64,000 nt of DNA from the IMG/VR virus record IMGVR_UViG_3300042196_000264. One strand, given 5' to 3'. Below are positions 33,425 to 63,763 of this stretch, piece after piece. Source of the DNA: an uncultured virus (IMG/VR IMGVR_UViG_3300042196_000264). Taxonomy: Duplodnaviria; Heunggongvirae; Uroviricota; Caudoviricetes. How positions within the stretch are numbered: the stretch's first letter is position 1; the number at the start of each line of letters is the position of its first letter. Position numbers and translations under genes: made by a program. The notes below the pieces were generated by a model. It was not told where the DNA came from. It saw only the letters and a program-made list of their open reading frames with translations, and searched no databases.

Positions 33425-33873
33425 CTTGGATCTTCGTGTGCGAGAGTCGGTATGCGTAGGGGTGGTTCCTTGGTTCTTCGTGTGCGAGAGAAGAGTGTTG
33501 CGGTGTCTCGAGCCACATCGACCGCCCATCCGCGCCAGCGACCGAGCAGCTTGGATCTTCGTGTGAGAGAGAAGAGCGTTGCGAGAGGTACGCCATGGGG
33601 TCCACGTCGTTGAGCGCGCATGCTTGGATCTTCGTGTGAGAGAGAAGAGCGTTGCGAGTAGGCAGAGCTTCCGTCGAGAGTGGGGCTCTGGAACTTGGAT
33701 CTTCGTGTGAGAGAGAAGAGCGTTGCGAGGCGAGAAATCGGGGATCCTCCGATGGGCCATGGAGGCTTGGATCTTCGTGTGAGAGAGAAGAGCGTTGCGA
33801 GGAGGAAGAGGCCATGAGACTGTTTTCGCAGCAAGTCCTTGGATCTTCGTGTGAGAGAGAAGAGCGTTGCGAG
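33425..33873 (-). CRISPR. CRISPR array 1: 5 intact repeats plus 1 degenerate and 1 truncated
   Basis: Repeat (minus sense) CTCGCAACGCTCTTCTCTCTCACACGAAGATCCAAG at 33550, 33623, 33694, 33766 and 33838; 35-37 nt spacers; decay at the left end. Confidence 0.95.
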
Positions 33874-33983
33874 TGGCCCCCTACTGGTGCACGTGCGAGG
33901 TGCTGGGGCCGTCGGCACCTGCGCATCATGGCACGCGGGGCCAGGGCGCGTCAACGCCCGGTCTTGCGTGCTAGTGCAAACCA
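33874..33983 (-). promoter_or_regulatory. Leader/promoter of array 1
   Basis: Minus strand TTTGCACTAGCACGCAAG box, then TTGACG-N18-CATGAT with a TG extension; homologous to the other two leaders. Confidence 0.8.
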
Positions 33984-34012
33984 TAGCCGGAGTTCATACA
34001 CTCCAACAACCC

Positions 34013-38297: not shown

Positions 38298-38373
38298 TGG
38301 TGCTCTCGGAAGGACTTGAACCTCCGACGCTCGGCACTTCAAGCCGACGCTCTACCAACTGAGCTACGAGAGC
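38298..38373 (-). tRNA. tRNA-Phe (GAA) with encoded CCA
   Basis: 76-nt cloverleaf: acceptor GCTCTCG/CGAGAGC-ACCA, anticodon arm TCGGC-TTGAAGT-GCCGA, T loop TTCAAGT. Confidence 0.93.
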
Positions 38374-38407: not shown

Positions 38408-39385
38408 CTTGGATCTTCGTGTGAGGAAGATGTGTGTTGCGAGTGCGCACGAGGTCGACGTCCTGCCAACGGAGCGCCCTCCTGGATCTTCGTGTGAGGA
38501 AGAAGTGTGTTGCGAGATGGCGACCTCCGGTTGTCCCGTGAGGTACCGGGGGCTTGGATCTTCGTGTGAGGAAGAAGTGTGTTGCGAGTACCGCGCTACC
38601 GCCTCCTCCTTCCGCACCGCGTTCCTTGGATCTTCGTGTGAGGAAGAAGTGTGTTGCGAGTGGGGCGGGGCTATCATGCGGGTGCACGGCTGTGGATCTT
38701 GGATCTTCGTGTGAGGAAGATGTGTGTTGCGAGAGGGCGGTGGGTGCCTGCGGTACCTGGGACATGCCCACTTGGATCTTCGTGTGAGGAAGAAGTGCGT
38801 TGCGAGGTGACGCGAGCTTGCCGACGAAGCTCCGGTCCGAGACTTGGATCTTCGTGTGAGGAAGAAGTGCGTTGCGAGTGCAGACACCGGGTTGCCAGGT
38901 CGCGGTGTACGGACTTGGATCTTCGTGTGAGGAAGAAGTGTGTTGCGAGACCGGCGCTCTGGATAAGCGTATTCCAGCTTGACGTCTTGGATCTTCGTGT
39001 GAGGAAGAAGTGTGTTGCGAGGCTGGCTGGGCGAGCGCGCTCGCGGGCAGCGTCATCTTGGATCTTCGTGTGAGGAAGAAGTGTGTTGCGAGTTGTGCTC
39101 GCCCGCACTCGGCCTCCCAGCCATTCCTGCTTGGATCTTCGTGTGAGGAAGAAGTGTGTTGCGAGCTGCGTCGGGATGGCCTGGGACGGGGTGGCATGGC
39201 CGGCTTGGATCTTCGTGTGAGGAAGAAGTGTGTTGCGAGCTGACGACCACCGAGACCCACTCCCTGACGGGGGAGCTCTTGGATCTTCGTGTGAGGAAGA
39301 AGTGTGTTGCGAGTTCGAGCCTTTTCGCGTGAGCCTGGGAGTACTCGTCCTTGGATCTTCGTGTGAGGAAGAAGTGTGTTGCGAG
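38408..39385 (-). CRISPR. CRISPR array 2: 14 repeats, 13 spacers
   Basis: Repeat (minus sense) CTCGCAACACACTTCTTCCTCACACGAAGATCCAAG; 35-38 nt unique spacers. Confidence 0.97.
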
Positions 39386-39493
39386 AGCCACCCTGTTGCC
39401 ACGCTGGCGTGGTGATGAGGCAGTCGGCACATGCGCAGGATGGCACGCGACGTCTGAGTGCGTCAACCCCCGGCCTTGCGTGCTAGTGCAAAG
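39386..39493 (-). promoter_or_regulatory. Leader/promoter of array 2
   Basis: Same box, then TTGACG-N18-CATCCT. Confidence 0.8.
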
Positions 39494-39501
39494 TGAGGTG
39501 C

Positions 39502-44658: not shown

Positions 44659-45465
44659 ATGCCAACGGTTCTGCCGAGCATCGATGTCACCATGCTGGCC
44701 TATAAGGAGCCAGCGATCGAGCACAACATCCGGAGTTGGCTTCCGCATGCAAGGAAGATTGTCGTGGTTGCAGGGGCAACCCTGGAAGCTCGAGGAGCCG
44801 GGTTCCCGGCCGTAGATGACGTGCTGGTGGAAAATCTCAGGATCATGGCGTTCCATGATTGCAGGATAGTCGTAGTGGACCGTGACACGTACTGGAAAGA
44901 CAAGAACGAGATGGCCGCGGCAGCTGCTGAACACCTGGGGGCAGACATCGTATGGCAGGTCGACGCAGACGAATTCTACTTCGCGGACGACATCGAACGA
45001 GCCAGGATGGAACTGGCTGACGATGGATGGGTCATCGCCAAGATGCCTCACATCATATTCTGGAAAGACAAGGAGCACGTGCTCCGTAGCCGTGCTGGCG
45101 ATGACTGGTTCGTACCTCAGCGCATCTGGAGGCGAGCGGACGGGGAAAGGTTCCTGCACCTTCCGTTCGGCACGATCCAGAAGTCAGATGGATCAGTGAC
45201 GACGTACGAGGGGAACGGCGTTCGAACTCTCGGATGGGGCCGCTGTTATCACAGTTGTTGGTGCCCACCTGCCGAGCGGATCGCATTCAAGTTTGCCTAT
45301 CACAAAGCAAGGGGAGACGGCGGATCCGAGCGATGGATCCATGATGTATGGGAAAACGGAGTGATCCCGCCAGAAGGTGTGCATCCCGGACAGACTGGGA
45401 TCTTTCCGACTCCGTTTTCCGGGCCGTGGCCACCAGCCTTTGTCGCGTCAGTTGAGTGCAAATGA
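44659..45465 (+). CDS. GT-A fold (GT2-like) glycosyltransferase
   Basis: WQVDADEFY DxD motif; lower GC than neighbours. Confidence 0.7.
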   Translation: MPTVLPSIDVTMLAYKEPAIEHNIRSWLPHARKIVVVAGATLEARGAGFPAVDDVLVENLRIMAFHDCRIVVVDRDTYWKDKNEMAAAAAEHLGADIVWQVDADEFYFADDIERARMELADDGWVIAKMPHIIFWKDKEHVLRSRAGDDWFVPQRIWRRADGERFLHLPFGTIQKSDGSVTTYEGNGVRTLGWGRCYHSCWCPPAERIAFKFAYHKARGDGGSERWIHDVWENGVIPPEGVHPGQTGIFPTPFSGPWPPAFVASVECK

Positions 45466-45491
45466 AAACACCACCGTTGCTGGCCATGCGG

Positions 45492-45516
45492 CTGCGTCGG
45501 GCTTCGCCCGACGCAG
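45492..45516. terminator. 11-bp perfect hairpin between the convergent GT gene and array 3
   Basis: CTGCGTCGGGC-TTC-GCCCGACGCAG; no clear U tract. Confidence 0.55.
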
Positions 45517-45539
45517 GTGTTGGAGTACCTAGGGATCCG

Positions 45540-46597
45540 CTTGGATCTTAGTGTGAGAAAGAAGTGTGTTGCGAGCGCAGCGACGGAGCGTCTGCCGCTG
45601 CTTCATCAGGTCCTGGATCTTCGTGTGAGGAAGAAGTGTGTTGCGAGGCGAACTCTACGGCCGCCCCCAGAGGTCTCGTCTGGCCTGGATCTTCGTGTGA
45701 GGAAGAAGTGCGTTGCGAGTCGGCGCCACGTCGGTGATCGTGAGTAGTGGATCGGTGTCCCTGGATCTTCGTGTGAGGAAGAAGTGTGTTGCGAGGCACC
45801 ATCCTGGGTCCGCTGGTGAAATATCACCGTCCTGGATCTTCGTGTGAGGAAGAAGTGTGTTGCGAGCCGAGACGATCCAGGCGGGGCTCCTGGACATCCT
45901 GCTCCTGGATCTTCGTGTGAGGAAGAAGTGTGTTGCGAGAAGGCATGATCAGCTTTGAGGCCACAGCGAACGCCATCCCTGGATCTTCGTGTGAGGAAGA
46001 AGTGTGTTGCGAGTACTCGCTCGCGCAGGTCGTGGAGGCCCTTGGGTCCCCTGGATCTTCGTGTGAGGAAGAAGTTGTGCTGCAAAGCCGTGCCCGTGAG
46101 CCCCCAGAGGAAGAGCGTACAGCGGCCTGGATCTTCGTGTGAGGAAGAAGTGTGCTGCAAGTCCAAGCCCGCCACGGTGCAGCTTGTCCTGTTTGGGCCT
46201 GGATCTTCGTGTGAGGAAGATGTGCGTTGCGAGTTCGCCCTGACGTTCGGCACCCTGCCCACGATGCGATACCTGGATCTTCGTGTGAGGAAGAAGTGTG
46301 TTGCGAGCGGGCAGGCCTGGATCGCGGTCGAGGGGGCAGGACGGGCCCTGGATCTTCGTGTGAGGAAGAAGTGTGTTGCGAGACTGCGCCCCCTGCGCCG
46401 GGCGCAGAAACGGTGGCACCTGGATCTTCGTGTGAGGAAGAAGTGTGTTGCGAGACGATCGTGGTGAACGGCCGGGAGATGCAGGTCGACCTGGATCTTC
46501 GTGTGAGGAAGAAGTGTGTTGCGAGGAGGATACGGGCGTGCGGTTGGCCGCGGACTGCATTCCTGGATCTTCGTGTGAGGAAGAAGTGTGTTGCGAG
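45540..46597 (-). CRISPR. CRISPR array 3: 15 repeats, 14 spacers
   Basis: Repeat (minus sense) CTCGCAACACACTTCTTCCTCACACGAAGATCCAGG; 35-40 nt spacers; degenerate leftmost repeat. Confidence 0.97.
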
Positions 46598-46707
46598 GGC
46601 CCCACTGTTGCCACGCTAGCATGGTACTGGGACCGTCGGCACTTGCGCAGGATGGCACGCGACGTCTGAGCGCGTCAAGGGCCGGTCTTGCGTGCTAGTG
46701 CAAAACC
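46598..46707 (-). promoter_or_regulatory. Leader/promoter of array 3, divergent from the effector gene
   Basis: Same box, then TTGACG-N18-CATCCT. Confidence 0.8.
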
Positions 46708-46783
46708 ATTCGCTAGAGCAAAGATCATGGGCGTGTCGATTTTCGCTTGTAGCTTTCCGTTCGGGACGGTAAGAAGCCCTCAC

Positions 46784-48586
46784 GTGGTCGACGCGAAACC
46801 AGACGCCAAGAAGGGCGTGCGCAGCAGGCTCCTCGAAGAGAAGAAGTCTCGGCGGGAGGCAGCGCTGCAGGACGGGCTCATGTGCGTGTACCAAGCGTAC
46901 AAGTACGAGATCCGTGAACGCTCGCCAGGACAGTTCCAGTTGCTGGCCAGGCACGCTGGCCTGAGCAGGTTCGCGAAAAACTGGTCGCTCCGGTTCTGGG
47001 TCAAGGAGCGAGAGGAGTTCGAGCGCGCGCGCGAACACATCAAGCTGCTGAAACTCGATGGATCCGCGGAAGCGGGCATCGCAGAGATCCAGAAGGTGCT
47101 TGACGAAGCCGTGAGGTCCTACTGGAGCTCGGCCATCCATGAGTCGTGGACGAAGGAAGCCCGCGATGTCGTGGACGAGATCGTGGCGTCCGCTCCGTTC
47201 GCCATCGTTCTGAACCTCGAACAGCAGCAGGAGAAGAGGGAGAAGATCGCGAAGGCGAAGGCAAAGGAAGCGGCGAAAAAGGCGAAGGAGGCGGCGAAGA
47301 GGTCTGCTTCCTCCCGCCGCAGCGTGGGCAGGCTCCGATCTGCAGCTCTTCCAGAAAAGGAAAAGGAAGAGGACAAGCCGCTGGAGATCGTAGAGCATCG
47401 GCGCACCCCTCTTGGGCTGCTGTCGAGGCTGTGGACGCAAACCGTCAAGCAGGTCTGCGTGAGCAGGGAGGATGGAAGCTTCTGGGCTGCGGGCCTGACC
47501 AGATGGGCCGCACAGGGTGCCCTCATCGCCACGGACGGAGCCTATTTCACGCACTTCAAAGCCCGTGCCAAGGCCAATCGTGGAGAGCTCTCTCGCGACG
47601 CAGTCCCAGGGCTCCCGACCTTCAAGAAGCGTAACGGGAAGAAGTCGTTCGCGGTCCAGTACTCGGGCGTCAAGTTGCCGCACGACGATGCGTCCCTTCG
47701 ACCCGATGAGGTGAAGGTCCAGGGCGTTGGAGTCGTAAGGCTCTACGAAGGACTGCAGAAGTTCCAGGGGACGATCAAGGCTGTCTCGGTCTCGAGCGAG
47801 GTTCGCGGCCGCTGGTGGATCTCGTTCACCGTCGAACGGACGCGACCGATCCCACGGCGTCGGCCGCAACCACGGGTAGGCGTCGACCTCGGAGCCAGGG
47901 ACACGATCACGCTCTCCGACGGCGTGGCGCACGAGCGCTCCTGGGAGGCTCCGAAACCGCTCGCCAACTCGCTCAAGAGGTTGCGTCGTCTCAGCAGGGC
48001 CCAGAGTCGTCGGAGAAAACCGTCGTGGGATAAGGAGACGCATGAGACCCTCGTCGAGGGGAGCAGCGGTTGGTACAAGGCTCGCCTCGAGGTCGCCAAG
48101 CTCAATTTCAAGATCGCGTGCCAGCGGCGGAACTGGCTCCACAACGTCACCACCGAGATCGCGAAGACGTACACCGACATCGTCATCGAGGGGTACAACG
48201 CCCGCGAGCTCGTGAAGAAGTCTCGCAAGGTCGTGAAGACGAAGGAGGGCCGTCGTAACATGGCCGACTCCGCAGTGGGGATGGCGCGATGGATGCTCAA
48301 GTACAAAGGTGACTGGTACGGGTGCCACGTCACCGTCGCCGACTCCAAGCTCCCCGCGAACAAGACCTGCTCCGTGTGCGGATGGGTGTCCCAACGCACG
48401 CAGTCCAAGAGGATCTACAAGTGTGATGCCTGCGGACAGCAGTGCATCAGGCCGATCAACACGGCAAGGTTTCTCGCTCGGTTTCGGCCAGGTGAGGAAG
48501 GACCGGCTATGGAATCCGGTCCCAAACTGGGTGGAGAGGACAAGCTAGCCCCGTCGGAAACGGCGGACGTGATGCCTCCTCCGTGA
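46784..48586 (+). CDS. tnpB: CRISPR-associated TnpB/Cas12-like RNA-guided protein, probably nuclease-dead
   Basis: AYKYEI...LLARHAG.SRF..NW, PTFKKR, GVDLG (RuvC-I), IVIEG (RuvC-II), CSVCG...CDACG zinc finger; RuvC-III reads IRPINTA in place of DRDxNAA; likely GTG start, about 600 aa. Confidence 0.88.
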   Translation: MVDAKPDAKKGVRSRLLEEKKSRREAALQDGLMCVYQAYKYEIRERSPGQFQLLARHAGLSRFAKNWSLRFWVKEREEFERAREHIKLLKLDGSAEAGIAEIQKVLDEAVRSYWSSAIHESWTKEARDVVDEIVASAPFAIVLNLEQQQEKREKIAKAKAKEAAKKAKEAAKRSASSRRSVGRLRSAALPEKEKEEDKPLEIVEHRRTPLGLLSRLWTQTVKQVCVSREDGSFWAAGLTRWAAQGALIATDGAYFTHFKARAKANRGELSRDAVPGLPTFKKRNGKKSFAVQYSGVKLPHDDASLRPDEVKVQGVGVVRLYEGLQKFQGTIKAVSVSSEVRGRWWISFTVERTRPIPRRRPQPRVGVDLGARDTITLSDGVAHERSWEAPKPLANSLKRLRRLSRAQSRRRKPSWDKETHETLVEGSSGWYKARLEVAKLNFKIACQRRNWLHNVTTEIAKTYTDIVIEGYNARELVKKSRKVVKTKEGRRNMADSAVGMARWMLKYKGDWYGCHVTVADSKLPANKTCSVCGWVSQRTQSKRIYKCDACGQQCIRPINTARFLARFRPGEEGPAMESGPKLGGEDKLAPSETADVMPPP

Positions 48587-48646
48587 AGCCCGGACTTCGT
48601 GTGAACTGCTTCGCCTCCCGGCAGGTAAATCTCGGGAGGCACTTTT
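48500..48646 (+). ncRNA. Putative tracrRNA derived from an omega-RNA scaffold
   Basis: Nested hairpins overlapping the gene end; CTTCGTGTGA at 48595-48604 is complementary to the crRNA repeat; 5' end uncertain. Confidence 0.75.
48613..48646 (+). terminator. Terminator after the putative tracrRNA
   Basis: GCCTCCCG...CGGGAGGC followed by ACTTTT. Confidence 0.7.
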
Positions 48647-49698
48647 CACGCTCGACGCTTGCGTAGGCGCGAGACTTGAGCACCGCTTCCGCGGGAATGC
48701 TTTCCAGATCCCTTCTTGCTCGGAGAACCGTGGATCAGGATCTCCTCCAACTCGTCGACCAACTTGCGAGGGGAACTCGTCCTGGCGTCGTCGTAGCGCT
48801 GCAGCATCGCTACTCCTGCGTGGCGTGTGAGCCTGGAAACGTCGCGGAGGTTTCCGTCCGTCATGTCCAGAGCGGTCGTCGCCCCGGTGTGACGCAACCC
48901 GTGTGGACGGATCCGCTTTCCATGCGAAGCGCTGATCCTGTCGAAGAGCCGCCTGACCGCAGCGATCGTCAACCTCTTCCCGCTGGACCTGTTTCCGAGC
49001 GTGATGAAGAGCGGGCCTTTCTCCTTCCCGCGGATCGCGAGCCATGCACGGATCGCATCCGCCGTCATCGCGCCGATCGGAAACCAAGATTTCTCACGCT
49101 TGCCCTTCCCGCGGAAGCGGATCTGCGGTTCCTTGCCGAGGTCCAGGTCTTCCGGGAAGTCGATGGCGAGCGGCTCCATCCGGCGCAGCAGGCAGGTCGA
49201 GTAGATCCTGACGAGCGCGAGGTCCCGGGTCGCCAGTGGGTCCCCCGCCGTCGCCAGTCTCGCGAGCTCGGCGTCGATTTCCCGGACGGACGTCGCCCCG
49301 GGGCCCGAGGGGTCACGCTTGGCCTCGTGGCGGACGCTGTCCACCTCGAGGGTCCAGGAGCAGAGGCCCAGGAGCCTGGCGACCCGCAGGAACGCATTCA
49401 GGCTGGCCAGCCTGCGGTTCACCGTGGAGCTGGCCAGGCCCGCCTCGCGGGCCTCGTCCCGCCACTCCAGCACGAGGGCGTTGGCCTCGGGTCCGGGGCG
49501 GCTGAGCAGGTCTGCGAGGGCGGACCTGGCGTCCGGGGTGCCCATGAACGCCGCCAGCGAGCGGAAGTCCCGTTCGTACTCGGCCGCCGAGGCCTTGGAG
49601 AGGCTGGCCAGGAGCCGTTCGTAGGCCCCGCTGCTGGGGCGCCTTGCGGCCTGGCGGGGGACTACGGCGGCGACGGGGGGCAGCTTGGCTGGGAGCAC
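48646..49698 (-). CDS. Tyrosine recombinase/integrase
   Basis: STVNRRLASL, RDLAL, LRRME, GKG, HGLRH, TRH, QRYDD; catalytic set intact; likely GTG start at 49698. Confidence 0.92.
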   Translation of the reverse strand: MLPAKLPPVAAVVPRQAARRPSSGAYERLLASLSKASAAEYERDFRSLAAFMGTPDARSALADLLSRPGPEANALVLEWRDEAREAGLASSTVNRRLASLNAFLRVARLLGLCSWTLEVDSVRHEAKRDPSGPGATSVREIDAELARLATAGDPLATRDLALVRIYSTCLLRRMEPLAIDFPEDLDLGKEPQIRFRGKGKREKSWFPIGAMTADAIRAWLAIRGKEKGPLFITLGNRSSGKRLTIAAVRRLFDRISASHGKRIRPHGLRHTGATTALDMTDGNLRDVSRLTRHAGVAMLQRYDDARTSSPRKLVDELEEILIHGSPSKKGSGKHSRGSGAQVSRLRKRRA

Positions 49699-49825
49699 CC
49701 GGAAAGTCCTAGCACACAAAATGGAAGCCTTTGTGACCTAGGAACAGGGGTTTCCACCCCCTCAAACACGCGTAAACAGCGCGCTATCTTAGGATTCCTA
49801 TAAGAGTTATAAGGGGCCGGACATC

Positions 49826-53037: not shown

Positions 53038-54157
53038 GCCCGATCATGCACATGGCACGGACGCGGACGCGGTCGGGGTCGGGGTCACGGACGCGGTCGG
53101 GGCCGGTGTCGCGGTCGCGGTCGCGGTCGGTGTCGCGGTCGGGGTCGCGGTCGGTGCCGCGGTCGGGGTCGTGGTCGTGGTCGCGGTCGCGGTCGTGGTC
53201 GCGGGCGCGGTCGCGGGTGCGGTCGTGGTCGGGGGGGTCGTGGTCGTGGTCGGGGTCGTCAGGAGGTGCCAGATGAGTCCGGTGATCCGCATGGCGTGTT
53301 CGCGAGTGTCGTGGGGAATGGGGTCGGTGTCGCGGTCGCTGTCGCTGTCGGTGTCGCGGTCGCGGTCGCGGGTGCGGTCGTGGTCGGGGTCGGGGTCGGG
53401 GTCGCGGTCGCGGTCGTGGTCGCGGGCGCGGTCGCGGGTGCGGTCGTGGTCGGGGGGGTCGTGGTCGTGGTCGCGGTCGTCAGGAGGTGCCAGATGAGCC
53501 CGGTGATCCGCATGGCGTGTTCGCGAGCGTTGTGGGGACTGGGGTCGCGGTCGGGGTCGTGGTGGTGGTCGCGGTCGCGGTCGCGGTCGCGGATGCGGTC
53601 GGGGTCGGGGTCGGGGTCGCGGTCGTGGTCGCGGTCGTGGTCGCGGATGCGGTCGTGGTCGTGGTCGTGGTCGTGGTCGCGGTCGCGGACGCGTTCGTCA
53701 GGAGGTGCCAGATGAGCCCGGTGATCCGCATGGCGTGTTCGCGAGTGTTGTGGGGACTGGCGTCGGTGTCGCGGTCGGCGTCGCGGTCGCGGTCGCGGTC
53801 GCGGTCGGGGTCGCGGTCGTGGTCGGGGACTCGGACGCGGACGGGGTCGTGGTCGTGCTCGCGGTCGGGGTCGCGGTCGCGGTCGCGGGTGCGGTCGTGG
53901 TCGGGGTCGCGGTCTCGGGCACGTTCGTCAGGAGGTGCCAGATGAGTCCGGTGATCCGCATGGCGTGTTCGCGAGCGTTGTGGGGACTGGGGTCGGGGTC
54001 GGGGTCGCGGTCGGGGTCGCGGTCGGGGTCGGGGTCGCGGTCGCGGTCGCGGTCGGGGTCGGGGTCGCGGTCGCGGTCGCGGTCGTGGATGCGGATGTGG
54101 TCGTGGTCGTGGTCGTGGTCGCGGTCGCGGTCGCGGTCGTCAGGAGGTGCCAGGTGA
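53034..54157 (+). repeat. Five tandem mini-genes encoding (Ser-Arg/Gly/Trp)n peptides
   Basis: ORFs 53034-53276, 53273-53497, 53494-53715, 53712-53945 and 53942-54157; junctions TCAGGAGGTGCCAGATGAG; body is (TCG-NGG)n. Confidence 0.85.
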
Positions 54158-61501: not shown

Positions 61502-63763
61502 TCACCACGAGATCACGTAGATCGCTCCGTGTCCACCTGTGCCACCTGCACCGGATGTGCCCGGAGATGTGGCTGCACCGCCACCGCCACCGCCACCGCC
61601 AGGCTGCCCGCCGTTTCCGCCTGCTCCGCCCGCCCCCGCGAGCGCGCCACCACCACCACCGCCGCCACTTCCGGCTTCGTAGCCATTTCCCGCGTCGCCG
61701 GCACCACCCGCTCCGCCCGCGGCTGCCCCGGCCGTACCTCCACCGCCTGTCGTAGCCGTGCGCGAACTCGCCTCGGATCCGCCGAGTCCCCCCGCTCCGC
61801 CAGCGGTGGTTCCACCTCCACCATTGACACCACCACCGCCGCCACCGCCGCCGGGACCGGCAGCACGGCTGCCGGCGGCTCCGGCCGCCGTGTCGTCTCC
61901 TGCTCCGCCGGATCCACCGTTGTCGGAGGCATTGTTGGTCCCCGCTCCTGCCGTCCCTGACGCAGTGCCTCCACCTCCTCCGGCAGTGGCGCCCGCCGCG
62001 AACACAACACTGCCGAACGTGGATTCTGTGCCGTTGGTGCCGCCATTTCCAGCACCATCGACTGCGACGCCCGCTCCGCCTGCGCCTCCAGTACCCACGC
62101 TCGTGGCCTCCGTGGCGCCGAGGGATGCAACGGTGAAGAACGCCTCGACGCGGGCGCCACCGCCAGCGCCGCCGCCGCCGCTGTCGTTCGTACTTCCACG
62201 GCCACCACCACCACCACCACCGCCACCGCCGAAGGCGATCACCTGTGCGTAGGTCGTTCCCGAGGCCTTCGTCCACGTACCGGCACCCGTCGCGGTGAAC
62301 GTCTGGACGTTGATCGCAGATCCAGTAGGTCCAGTTGCACCGGTGGCCCCCGTGGTTCCGCTGGCTCCCGTAGCGCCTGTTGCCCCCGTTGGTCCTGTCG
62401 CTCCCGTCGCGCCTGTTGCCCCGGTCGCACCGGTGGCCCCGGTGGCGCCTGTGGGCCCGGTGGCGCCCGTGGGTCCAGTCGCCCCCGTGGGCCCGGTGGC
62501 GCCCGTGGGCCCTGTCGCTCCGGTCGCCCCGGTGGCGCCCGTGGGCCCTGTCGCTCCGGTGGCTCCGGTGGCGCCCGTGGGCCCGGTCGCTCCCGTGGGT
62601 CCAGTAGCCCCCGTGGTCCCGGTGGCGCCCGTGGGCCCAGTAGCCCCCGTGGCGCCAGTCGCCCCTGTGGGGCCTGTCGCTCCGGTGGCTCCGGTGGCGC
62701 CCGTGGGTCCAGTGGCGCCCGTAGGACCCGTGCTCCCGGTCGCCCCGGTCGCTCCCGTCGCTCCCGTGGCGCCCGTGGGTCCTGTCGCGCCAGTCGGACC
62801 CGTGCTCCCGGTCGCACCCGTCGCACCCGTGGGTCCGGTGGCCCCGGTGGCGCCAGTCGGACCTGTTGCGCCGGTGGATCCTGTGGGCCCGGTGGCGCCG
62901 GTGGGTCCTGTCGCACCGGTGGCCCCGGTTGCGCCGGTGGATCCTGTGGGTCCCGTCGCACCAGTTGCGCCTGTGGGACCGGTGGCGCCTGTGGGACCCG
63001 TCGCTCCGGTTGGCCCGGTCGCGCCTGTGGGACCCGTGGCACCGGTCGCTCCGGTGGCTCCTTGTGCCCCTGCGACACCAGTTGGACCCGTGGCACCCGT
63101 GGCACCCGTGGGTCCAGTTGCGCCAAACGTACCTGTGGGCCCTGTGGGGCCTGCTGGCCCGGTTGGACCTGTTGGGCCTGTGGGTCCTGTGGAGCCGGTC
63201 CCGGGGCCTGCAGGTCCGGTTGAGCCGGTAGGGCCTGTCGCCCCTGTCGGCCCCATGGGACCTTCTTGATCGCAGCACTCGAGAGATTGGATCGCGAGGA
63301 TCTCTGCAAGGTCGTCGGGGACCTCGAAGTTGATGCGAACGAGGATCGGATCTCCAGGGTTCGCGGATAGCCCGACGACCTGGAGGTCGGAGCCCTGGGG
63401 TACGAAGATCCCCTGGATCTCTTCGAAGTAGTCCGTGAGCCCGACGAGGCTGACGACTTCCTTCTGGAAGGAGACCGCTCCGGAGGTTCGGTCGACGATG
63501 TTGATGGCAGCGCCAGCGACTCCGGCGTTGGGTCCAGCGATCCAGATCGAGACGATGTAGCGGTTGCCGTAGGCGCTATCACCGGCGCCGAAGTTCGCAA
63601 CGTTCCCGAAGTCCGGCGTGAGCAGGCCTAGGTTCGCGACGGGTACGCGGTAGACCTGGTCGAGCTCGGGTGGCGCCCGGCTCGTGTCGATGACAGGGGC
63701 AGGCGTCGTGCCGTCCAGGGTCCCGCTGACGATGTACAGGACCGTGATCGTCTTGCTGCTCAC
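61502..63763 (-). CDS. Collagen-like and glycine-rich fibre protein, paralogue B
   Basis: GTG start (VSSKTIT); same three-part architecture as paralogue A. Confidence 0.85.

Follow-up and report, generated by a model that had tools for sequence, protein, structure and literature searches.

A candidate split omega-RNA at the 3' end of a TnpB-like effector gene on a CRISPR-carrying viral contig

In this study, we examined 64,000 nt of DNA (the window; 64 kb out of a 119.9-kb contig) from an uncultured virus of the Caudoviricetes (IMG/VR record IMGVR_UViG_3300042196_000264), which carries three CRISPR arrays and a gene for a TnpB-derived effector protein. Based on the sequence alone, it had originally been predicted that the omega-RNA expected at the 3' end of such a gene has been turned into a tracrRNA (trans-activating CRISPR RNA), whose missing 3' part and guide are supplied in trans by the CRISPR RNA (crRNA). 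Our analysis supports this prediction, drawing on the layout of related TnpB loci, the covariation within them, the 3' end of the repeat and the best of three covariance models. We consider it likely, with a probability of roughly 0.7, that positions ~48496-48646 of the plus strand encode a functional split omega-RNA, which would represent an ancestral TnpB omega-RNA over four-fifths of its length, counted from the 5' end, and act as a tracrRNA.

The candidate scaffold (48500-48604) overlaps the 3' end of the effector open reading frame (ORF) on the same strand, and the elements previously read from its sequence are present (Table 1): the stem-1 hairpin GGACCGG/CCGGTCC, an outer and an inner stem around a hairpin with a GAAA tetraloop, a perfect 10-nt complement of the CRISPR repeat and, in the first loop, a TGGA that is complementary to a TCCA near the 3' end of the repeat. 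The minimum free energy (MFE) fold reproduces the stem pairing, and the same helices are recovered when the region is co-folded with the repeat. Four DNA runs gave contigs that are identical across 48421-48760, with a single in-gene difference at 48403 (run X2), and because of this identity the locus itself offers no natural variation for a covariation analysis.

For comparison, 3' ends were taken from 55 related TnpB loci, drawn from GTDB genomes and from metagenomes. A GGAG...GAA(G/C/A) module flanked by four complementary bases was found in the 3' regions of 44 of the 55, in line with the IS605-type omega-RNA layout at the tnpB 3' end that the original prediction had invoked. The outer stem occurs in these relatives in eight compensatory types (GACG/CGTC, CCCG/CGGG, CCTG/CAGG, CTTG/CAAG, CTGG/CCAG, CTCG/CGAG, CGCG/CGTG and CTCA/TGAG), and the window contributes a ninth, TGGG/CCCG. 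In the relatives the omega-RNA elements follow each other in the order stem 1, outer stem, UGGAG, inner stem, hairpin, UGAAG and closing outer stem, with a stem 1 of 5 bp and a 5-nt loop at the same place as the 7-bp stem 1 of the window. RNAalifold, applied to 36 of the 38 distinct sequences (L086 and L100, which have long inserts, were omitted), found the outer and inner stems, with double changes in 8 of the 9 predicted pairs. For 16 actinobacterial relatives, a 17-pair structure consisting of stem 1, the outer and inner stems and the base of the hairpin had 94% of its cells paired and double changes in 11 pairs; its covariation score was 0.454 compared with 0.118 in shuffles, none of 500 of which reached it, and slid controls scored at most 0.063. 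In the window, each of the 10 pairs of the outer and inner stems is formed, and the place expected for stem 1 is occupied by a hairpin.

The point at which the RNA would have been split can be read from the same comparison. In the relatives the omega-RNA closes with a last stem-loop, a 4-nt strand complementary to the loop of stem 1 and 2 nt, after which the guide begins. The stem-1 loop is complementary at 4/4 positions to the four nucleotides placed 2 nt before the element end in 15 of 40 relatives, with three covarying types of this pseudoknot (GAAC/GGAC:GTTC, GACA/GGCA:TGTC and GTTC:GAAC). The window region halts where the last stem-loop of the relatives begins, and the anti-repeat, with which it ends, is the 5' strand of that stem. 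On the plus strand after the anti-repeat there is no 3' strand of the last stem, no pseudoknot strand and no guide, and the terminator-like hairpin follows. These parts of the relatives' RNAs, namely the 3' strand of the last stem, a pseudoknot strand of 4 nt and a linker of 2 nt, correspond in the window to the last 17 nt of the repeat, which ends in TCACACGAAG-A-TCCA-GG (-AG instead of -GG in arrays 1 and 2); the TCCA thus lies in the repeat, and TGGA:TCCA, as judged by complementarity only, has the same 2-nt offset as the pseudoknots of the relatives. Repeat positions 19-34 are invariant in 33/33 repeats of the three array variants, and variation is found in the 5' half and at position 35. 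We propose a split form because the plus strand does not hold one continuous RNA with a guide of its own.

The anti-repeat 10-mer CTTCGTGTGA occurs 34 times in all, 33 times in the arrays and once outside them, at the gene end, with 0.20 occurrences expected. A perfect plus-strand anti-repeat of at least 10 nt within 200 nt of the stop codon (a 400-nt zone) arose in 227 of 20,000 shuffles (0.011), and 2,108 of 100,000 random 9-nt loops contained a complement suitable for the pseudoknot (0.021). By chance alone the window should contain about three 10-mers that match the repeat somewhere along its length, so the significance of the anti-repeat rests on its position and strand. A longer anti-repeat, CCCGGA:UCCAGG, was considered and rejected, the pseudoknot being preferred; the longer pairing would compete with the pseudoknot and with the outer stem, and the AAG at the repeat ends of arrays 1 and 2 would weaken it there.

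Covariance models over homologous loci, which had been suggested as a check, gave a divided answer: one of three models finds the region and two do not reach significance. All three were trained on the relatives alone, with the window left out, and are roughly calibrated. R3, built from 34 structure-aligned relatives, ranks the target 1st of 24 (15.7 bits; E 0.048 window-wide, 0.0003 within 200 nt on either side of the stop codon), and its best match in the 128 kb searched, 48502-48594 (+), spans the full length of the model with stem 1 aligned. A strict descriptor that matched 26 of 51 distinct relatives found 4 places in the window, compared with a mean of 0.92 in shuffled windows; the target was its sole match on the plus strand, the other 3 being on the minus strand. 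No Rfam family matched at gathering or permissive thresholds. Homology of the region to omega-RNAs is therefore supported by the layout and by the best model, for an element that appears strongly diverged and with statistics that are modest.

The closest known protein, P0003 (encoded on one 11.9-kb contig), offers a further view of the gene end. Its C-terminal tail keeps A-M-(D/E), G-P, L-G-G-E-D and P-P-L-stop, and we infer that the codons for these parts of a disordered tail can spell AUGGA, the stem-1 3' arm, CUGGGUGGAG and CUGUGA(AG). The end of the P0003 gene would then be expected to show a stem 1 of the GGAC...GUCC type, with AUGGA inside its loop, and a terminal CUGUGAAG.

Table 1. Positions of the candidate RNA elements and of other features in the window
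Feature	Position	Strand	Description
Stem 1	48500-48522	+	GGACCGG (48500-48506), loop CTATGGAAT (48507-48515), CCGGTCC (48516-48522); 7 bp, 9-nt loop
Proposed pseudoknot strand TGGA	48510-48513	+	In stem-1 loop; complements TCCA at repeat -6 to -3
Outer stem	48527-48531 with 48589-48593	+	From sequence and MFE fold
UGGAG motif	48532-48536	+	From sequence and layout of relatives
Inner stem	48536-48540 with 48577-48581	+	From sequence and MFE fold
Hairpin	48551-48566	+	6 bp, GAAA loop; from sequence and MFE fold
UGAAG motif	48584-48588	+	Holds effector stop codon TGA (48584-48586)
Anti-repeat CTTCGTGTGA	48595-48604	+	10/10 complementary to repeat positions 20-29; 8 nt past stop codon
Terminator-like G+C hairpin	48613-48640	+	8-9 bp, then TTTT (48643-48646)
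Effector gene	46880-48586	+	568 aa, TnpB-derived: WED, enlarged helical REC, RuvC, zinc finger
Pro525 codon	48452-48454	+	Replaces RuvC-III Asp (D361 of ISDra2)
Tyrosine integrase gene	48646-49737	-	Convergent with effector gene
CRISPR array 1	33425-33873	-	5 repeats plus two decayed repeats at trailer end; 5' half of repeat unlike other arrays
Leader of array 1	33874-33985	-	Conserved copy of ~108-nt leader
CRISPR array 2	38408-39385	-	14 repeats; 13/14 end ...TCCAAG, 1/14 ends ...TCCAGG
Leader of array 2	39386-39495	-	Conserved copy of ~108-nt leader
CRISPR array 3	45540-46597	-	14 repeats of 36 nt plus degenerate terminal repeat 45575-45540
Leader of array 3	46598-46705	-	~108 nt, conserved upstream of all three arrays
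tRNA-Phe (GAA) gene	38298-38373	-	Directly downstream of last repeat of array 2

According to the model that we propose, the tracrRNA would be the 3' end of the effector transcript, or else the product of an internal promoter, and would terminate at the hairpin and U-run of 48613-48646; it would fold into stem 1 and the outer-stem/UGGAG/inner-stem/hairpin/UGAAG module. The pre-crRNA would come from the minus strand, from promoters in the conserved leaders, and the last 17 nt of its repeat would supply in trans the 3' part that the omega-RNA lacks: UCACACGAAG of the repeat would pair with the anti-repeat to give 10 bp equivalent to the last stem of the omega-RNA with its loop cut open, the UCCA of the repeat would form a 4-bp pseudoknot with the UGGA of the stem-1 loop, and GG (or AG) would join the scaffold to the spacer, which would serve as the guide. 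The rebuilt two-piece scaffold would measure about 122 nt, compared with 116 nt in ISDra2, and the TnpB-like effector would bind it and go to DNA matching the spacer. A promoter scan of 45400-49000 gave no promoter.

Several of our results weigh against this proposal. R1, trained on 36 sequences without stem 1, places the target 2nd (10.7 bits, E 0.45) behind a match at 61669-61761 (-), and R2, trained on the 16 actinobacterial sequences, ranks it 22nd (6.9 bits, E 9.1); neither result is significant. Since distant relatives receive 21-46 bits from R2, its low score for the target indicates that the element departs widely from the consensus of the omega-RNAs. The match preferred by R1 (17.4 bits, E 0.011) includes 8.2 bits of bias, has 74% G+C, lies in an ORF without a Pfam match and falls to E 0.31 under the better model, and is probably a compositional false positive. 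The calibration of R3 is, as said, rough, the loop and gap ranges of the descriptor were set once the window was known, and the tail motifs of the pseudoknot table were picked by eye. In that table 13 of the 40 relatives, the AGTGG-loop group, have 3/4 pairs only, and a further 12 fail or are unscorable. A length of 10 bp is also short for a repeat:anti-repeat duplex. Finally, the terminator with which the original prediction had closed the RNA stands only in part: the G+C hairpin and the TTTT are present, with the U-run on the plus strand only and at a site between the convergent effector and integrase genes, but a terminator consensus scan did not call the hairpin of 48613-48646, so that any terminator here would be a non-canonical one.

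The remaining adverse points touch on the question of whether there is an RNA element at all, rather than a set of features that arose by chance in G+C-rich coding sequence. The fold energy of the region is no better than that of shuffles (z = -0.26), hairpins of 7 bp are no rarity when G+C is 63%, the descriptor has three further matches in the window, and of the roughly three chance 10-mer matches to the repeat that are expected per window one other was seen, at 63402-63411. We regard chance as very improbable all the same, as a single stretch of 150 nt, located where predicted and on the correct strand, combines the anti-repeat (0.011), the pseudoknot complement (0.021) and the covariance-model match (E 0.0003 within the stop-codon zone). 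What we consider unlikely, to a lesser degree, is that the effector works with a crRNA alone and that the region at the gene end is a decaying omega-RNA relic without function, its 10-nt complement being a leftover or fortuitous. This would fit with the low scores of the region under the covariance models compared with the 21-96 bits of true omega-RNAs, and with a repeat that can form a 5-bp hairpin of its own immediately 5' of the spacer, like the repeats of type V systems that use crRNA only; in a review table, several small Cas12 types are listed as having no need for a tracrRNA. However, the repeat on its own folds weakly (-3.2 kcal/mol), and 36 nt of repeat are no substitute for the scaffold of about 100 nt that proteins of the size of TnpB bind. 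The joint retention of 10 outer and inner stem pairs, a stem 1 of 7 bp, an anti-repeat free of mismatches and a pseudoknot complement would also be unexpected in a relic, and the part of the repeat that faces the scaffold elements is the invariant part.

Least probable, in our judgement, is that the arrays have nothing to do with the RNA, which would then be the undivided omega-RNA of a mobile TnpB element and carry its own guide downstream. The 5' scaffold does overlap the gene end as in IS605/IS607 elements, and the best NCBIfam match of the effector is IS607_TnpB, though with 169.9 bits far under the cutoff of 350. Such an RNA would need the sequences found to be lacking on the plus strand, where there is also no conserved element end and the terminator-like hairpin follows directly; copies of the complementary strand are confined to the arrays, no transposase is adjacent, and the searched collections hold a single close relative of the effector and no more copies. 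A split omega-RNA, completed by the repeat, remains the reading that we prefer.

A second perfect complement of the repeat, the 9-nt GTGAGGAAG at 48492-48500 (+), lies just 5' of stem 1 and matches repeat positions 15-23. Four nucleotides of its target also belong to that of the main anti-repeat, array 1 does not keep the match because its repeat differs there, and a complement of 9 nt or longer was obtained in 804 of 20,000 shuffles. The other 10-nt match mentioned above, ACGAAGATCC, belongs to a small palindrome at 63402-63420 (+), 15 kb from the effector, that also has a 9-nt match on the opposite strand; this is probably a chance occurrence. When duplex energies between the repeat and the window were scanned, long interior loops dominated and the scan was therefore not discriminating.

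The three arrays hold 30 distinct spacers of 35-40 nt each between repeats of 36 nt. They are read from the minus strand because the leaders lie on their high-coordinate side and the decayed repeats on their low-coordinate side; in this orientation every spacer would have its repeat on the 5' side, which is the arrangement of type V systems. The conserved leader includes a TTGACG box in all three arrays, and related leader copies were found beside repeat variants on other contigs of run X1. No spacer target was found in the window or, for the spacers of arrays 2 and 3, among GenBank phages, a search that did not extend to array 1, plasmids or metagenomes. The 15-nt core of the repeat had 52 single chance matches and no array among viral contigs.

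The start of the effector gene was chosen from P0003, which begins at the equivalent methionine; a longer gene call of 619 aa was rejected as it would overlap the leader of the array. Pfam assigns OrfB_IS605 and Cas12f1-like_TNB to the effector, and the NCBIfam model guided_TnpB matches it with 145.6 bits (cutoff 100). Its AlphaFold2 (AF2) model has a pLDDT confidence score of 85.7, shows the enlarged helical REC with a disordered Lys/Glu-rich insert, and has the ISDra2 and ISFba1 TnpBs as its best Foldseek matches. The low-confidence, Lys/Glu/Ala-rich insert (residues ~115-177) is encoded by tandem units of 21 nt and 6 nt at 47249-47377, and the corresponding insert in P0003 is shorter.

Among 1.84 billion cluster representatives, P0003 (556 aa, 65-66% identity) is the sole close and full-length homologue of the effector, the remaining matches being TnpBs with ~31-41% identity across the C-terminal 300 residues. 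A search of genome contigs gave 2 loci with 36% identity, and one of metagenome contigs gave 24, of which 23 have best segments that are 21-38% identical and one reaches 42% over a 64-residue fragment. No homologous locus was found among viral contigs, either with the effector protein or with an alignment of the two proteins, and GenBank phages yielded TnpBs of ~30% identity only. Judged by these searches, the lineage is nearly an orphan.

In the RuvC domain, alignments with PDB structures indicate that Asp336 (RuvC-I) and Glu437 (RuvC-II) are kept and that the Asp of RuvC-III is replaced by Pro525, so that in place of an intact D-E-D triad the effector has D336-E437-P525. Its motif reads IRPINTA where others have DRDxNAA, and that of P0003 is identical. 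Across a 52-row protein alignment the position is occupied by D in 38, Q in 7, P in 3, E in 2 and G and R in one row each, and the nearest TnpBs have RQxNTA and EG(F/Y) motifs. The catalytic Asp is kept, mostly as DRD, in all of the relative loci whose tblastn match covers the motif, a few matches ending before it. The lineage therefore seems to lie inside or beside a TnpB subgroup with altered RuvC-III; a survey in the Proceedings of the National Academy of Sciences (PNAS) describes six large TnpB branches of this kind and leaves their activity open. It is possible that the effector binds or silences DNA without cleaving it, or that it has a rearranged active site with a relocated catalytic residue. 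More speculatively, and in our view rather doubtful, the window might hold a phage-borne system without adaptation genes in which 30 spacers and a minimal two-piece omega-RNA direct an effector that has lost its RuvC-III Asp; this effector would bind or silence DNA under RNA guidance, or else steer a partner, for example the tail-to-tail integrase. If true, this would be a 'dead' TnpB of natural origin with CRISPR arrays still in use, as well as an independent TnpB-to-Cas12 transition, seen on a virus at a very early stage.

The G+C content of the window is 63% and the majority of its ORFs belong to no known family. Those that could be recognized, namely a Gp88-family protein, a Dda-like helicase, DUF5131, a C5 cytosine methyltransferase, the tyrosine integrase, a sliding clamp and a few PHROGs of unassigned function, point to a phage or similar mobile element; no virion genes were recognized within the 64 kb. 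In a PADLOC scan of 63 ORFs, picked by third-codon G+C content and mostly of at least 100 aa, the effector alone matched a Cas profile, and none of the 63 was a cas1, cas2 or cas4 adaptation gene, though a small cas2 could escape such a set. Neither a transposase nor element ends adjoin the effector. The stop codons of the effector and integrase genes are 60 nt apart, with the terminator-like hairpin in between; passages of the PNAS survey name phage integrases as partners of some inactivated, exapted TnpBs. Tandem Repeats Finder reported a 1.08-kb stretch with a 6-nt period at 53058-54139 (consensus CGGTCG, 180 copies, 67% matches), which may encode a highly repetitive protein.

The principle of splitting an omega-RNA has already been published. 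The authors of the ISDra2 structure describe the omega-RNA as a 'natural sgRNA' (single-guide RNA), in which crRNA-like and tracrRNA-like parts are joined by the tetraloop of the last stem, and propose in the same paper that tracrRNA-crRNA pairs came from a split omega-RNA. A review citing Jin et al. 2025 (Cell) speaks of 'functional RNA splitting', of TranC intermediates and of many independent splits from TnpB to Cas12, and the text of the PNAS survey counts ~50 independent transitions from TnpB to type V, many of them small systems without adaptation genes; the effector lineage might already be among V-U6 to V-U45 in the supplements of that survey. The window is thus a rare added example of modest novelty, its unusual traits being the phage-like host element, the near-orphan lineage and the Pro in place of the RuvC-III Asp, and its value is that of a specimen rather than of the discovery of a kind. 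As such it would be a very compact natural example of the split of an omega-RNA into tracrRNA and crRNA, on which the emergence of type V CRISPR systems is thought to rest. The break point is directly legible, with the anti-repeat as the 5' strand of the last stem and the last 17 nt of the repeat as its 3' strand, the pseudoknot strand and the linker, and the stop codon of the effector lies in a conserved RNA motif. The effector could reveal what such intermediates do naturally and might give a small programmable DNA binder.

A close parallel to the proposed RNA is the TnpB omega-RNA (reRNA) of IS200/IS605-IS607 elements such as ISDra2, with which it shares the overlap with the 3' end of the nuclease gene and would share stem 1, the conserved internal-loop module, the last stem and a pseudoknot 5' of the guide; according to the ISDra2 structure report, that pseudoknot is formed at -5 to -3, with non-canonical pairs at -6 and -2, and is stacked on stem 1. 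In contrast to these omega-RNAs, the RNA of the window would end in the loop of the last stem and take 17 nt and the guide from repeats and spacers on the opposite strand 1.9 kb away; it has no transposase or element ends beside it and its primary sequence is strongly diverged. The TranC systems share with it, as far as the review's account goes, the concept of an omega-RNA split into tracrRNA and crRNA; however, similarity of the effector to the solved LaTranC is weak (39 bits) and limited to the C-terminal part.

Cas12n (type V-N, formerly V-U4/C2c9) likewise has a miniature TnpB-like effector in Actinobacteria-type DNA. The original prediction had cited it for a tracrRNA that overlaps the end of the ORF, and this agrees with a passage of a review in which the tracrRNA is placed inside the cas12n mRNA and Cas12n and TnpB are considered alike in the source of their guide RNA. 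The account of the RdCas12n structure has -4 to -2 paired with the stem-1 loop region as a pseudoknot, followed by the repeat:anti-repeat stem. However, the effector lies no nearer to Cas12n than to plain TnpBs, matching RdCas12n with 73 bits and ISDra2 TnpB with 79.5, RdCas12n is at rank 35 among its Foldseek matches, the scaffold before the terminator is about 105 nt compared with the 170-nt tracrRNA of Cas12n, RuvC-III has Pro where Cas12n, a type marked by an intact D-E-D triad, an A-rich PAM and dsDNA cleavage, has DRD, and the element of the window is phage-like. The label 'Cas12u4' given to the effector by PADLOC (170 bits) was not adopted, as ordinary transposon TnpBs reach 293-310 bits with it.

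Cas12f (type V-F) is among the Foldseek matches and, as described, has the same order of guide, pseudoknot and stem, with repeat:anti-repeat 1 as the pseudoknot and 2 as the stem; it differs in acting as a dimer with a separately encoded tracrRNA, whereas the tracrRNA of the window would overlap the gene end and the REC of the effector is enlarged. Finally, in the replacement of one catalytic residue the effector resembles Cas12m, Cas12c, Cas12k, TldR and the TnpB branches with altered RuvC-III. It differs from these nuclease-impaired relatives in that, judged from the alignments, only one of the three residues appears to be changed, and arrays, which TldR is without, are retained.

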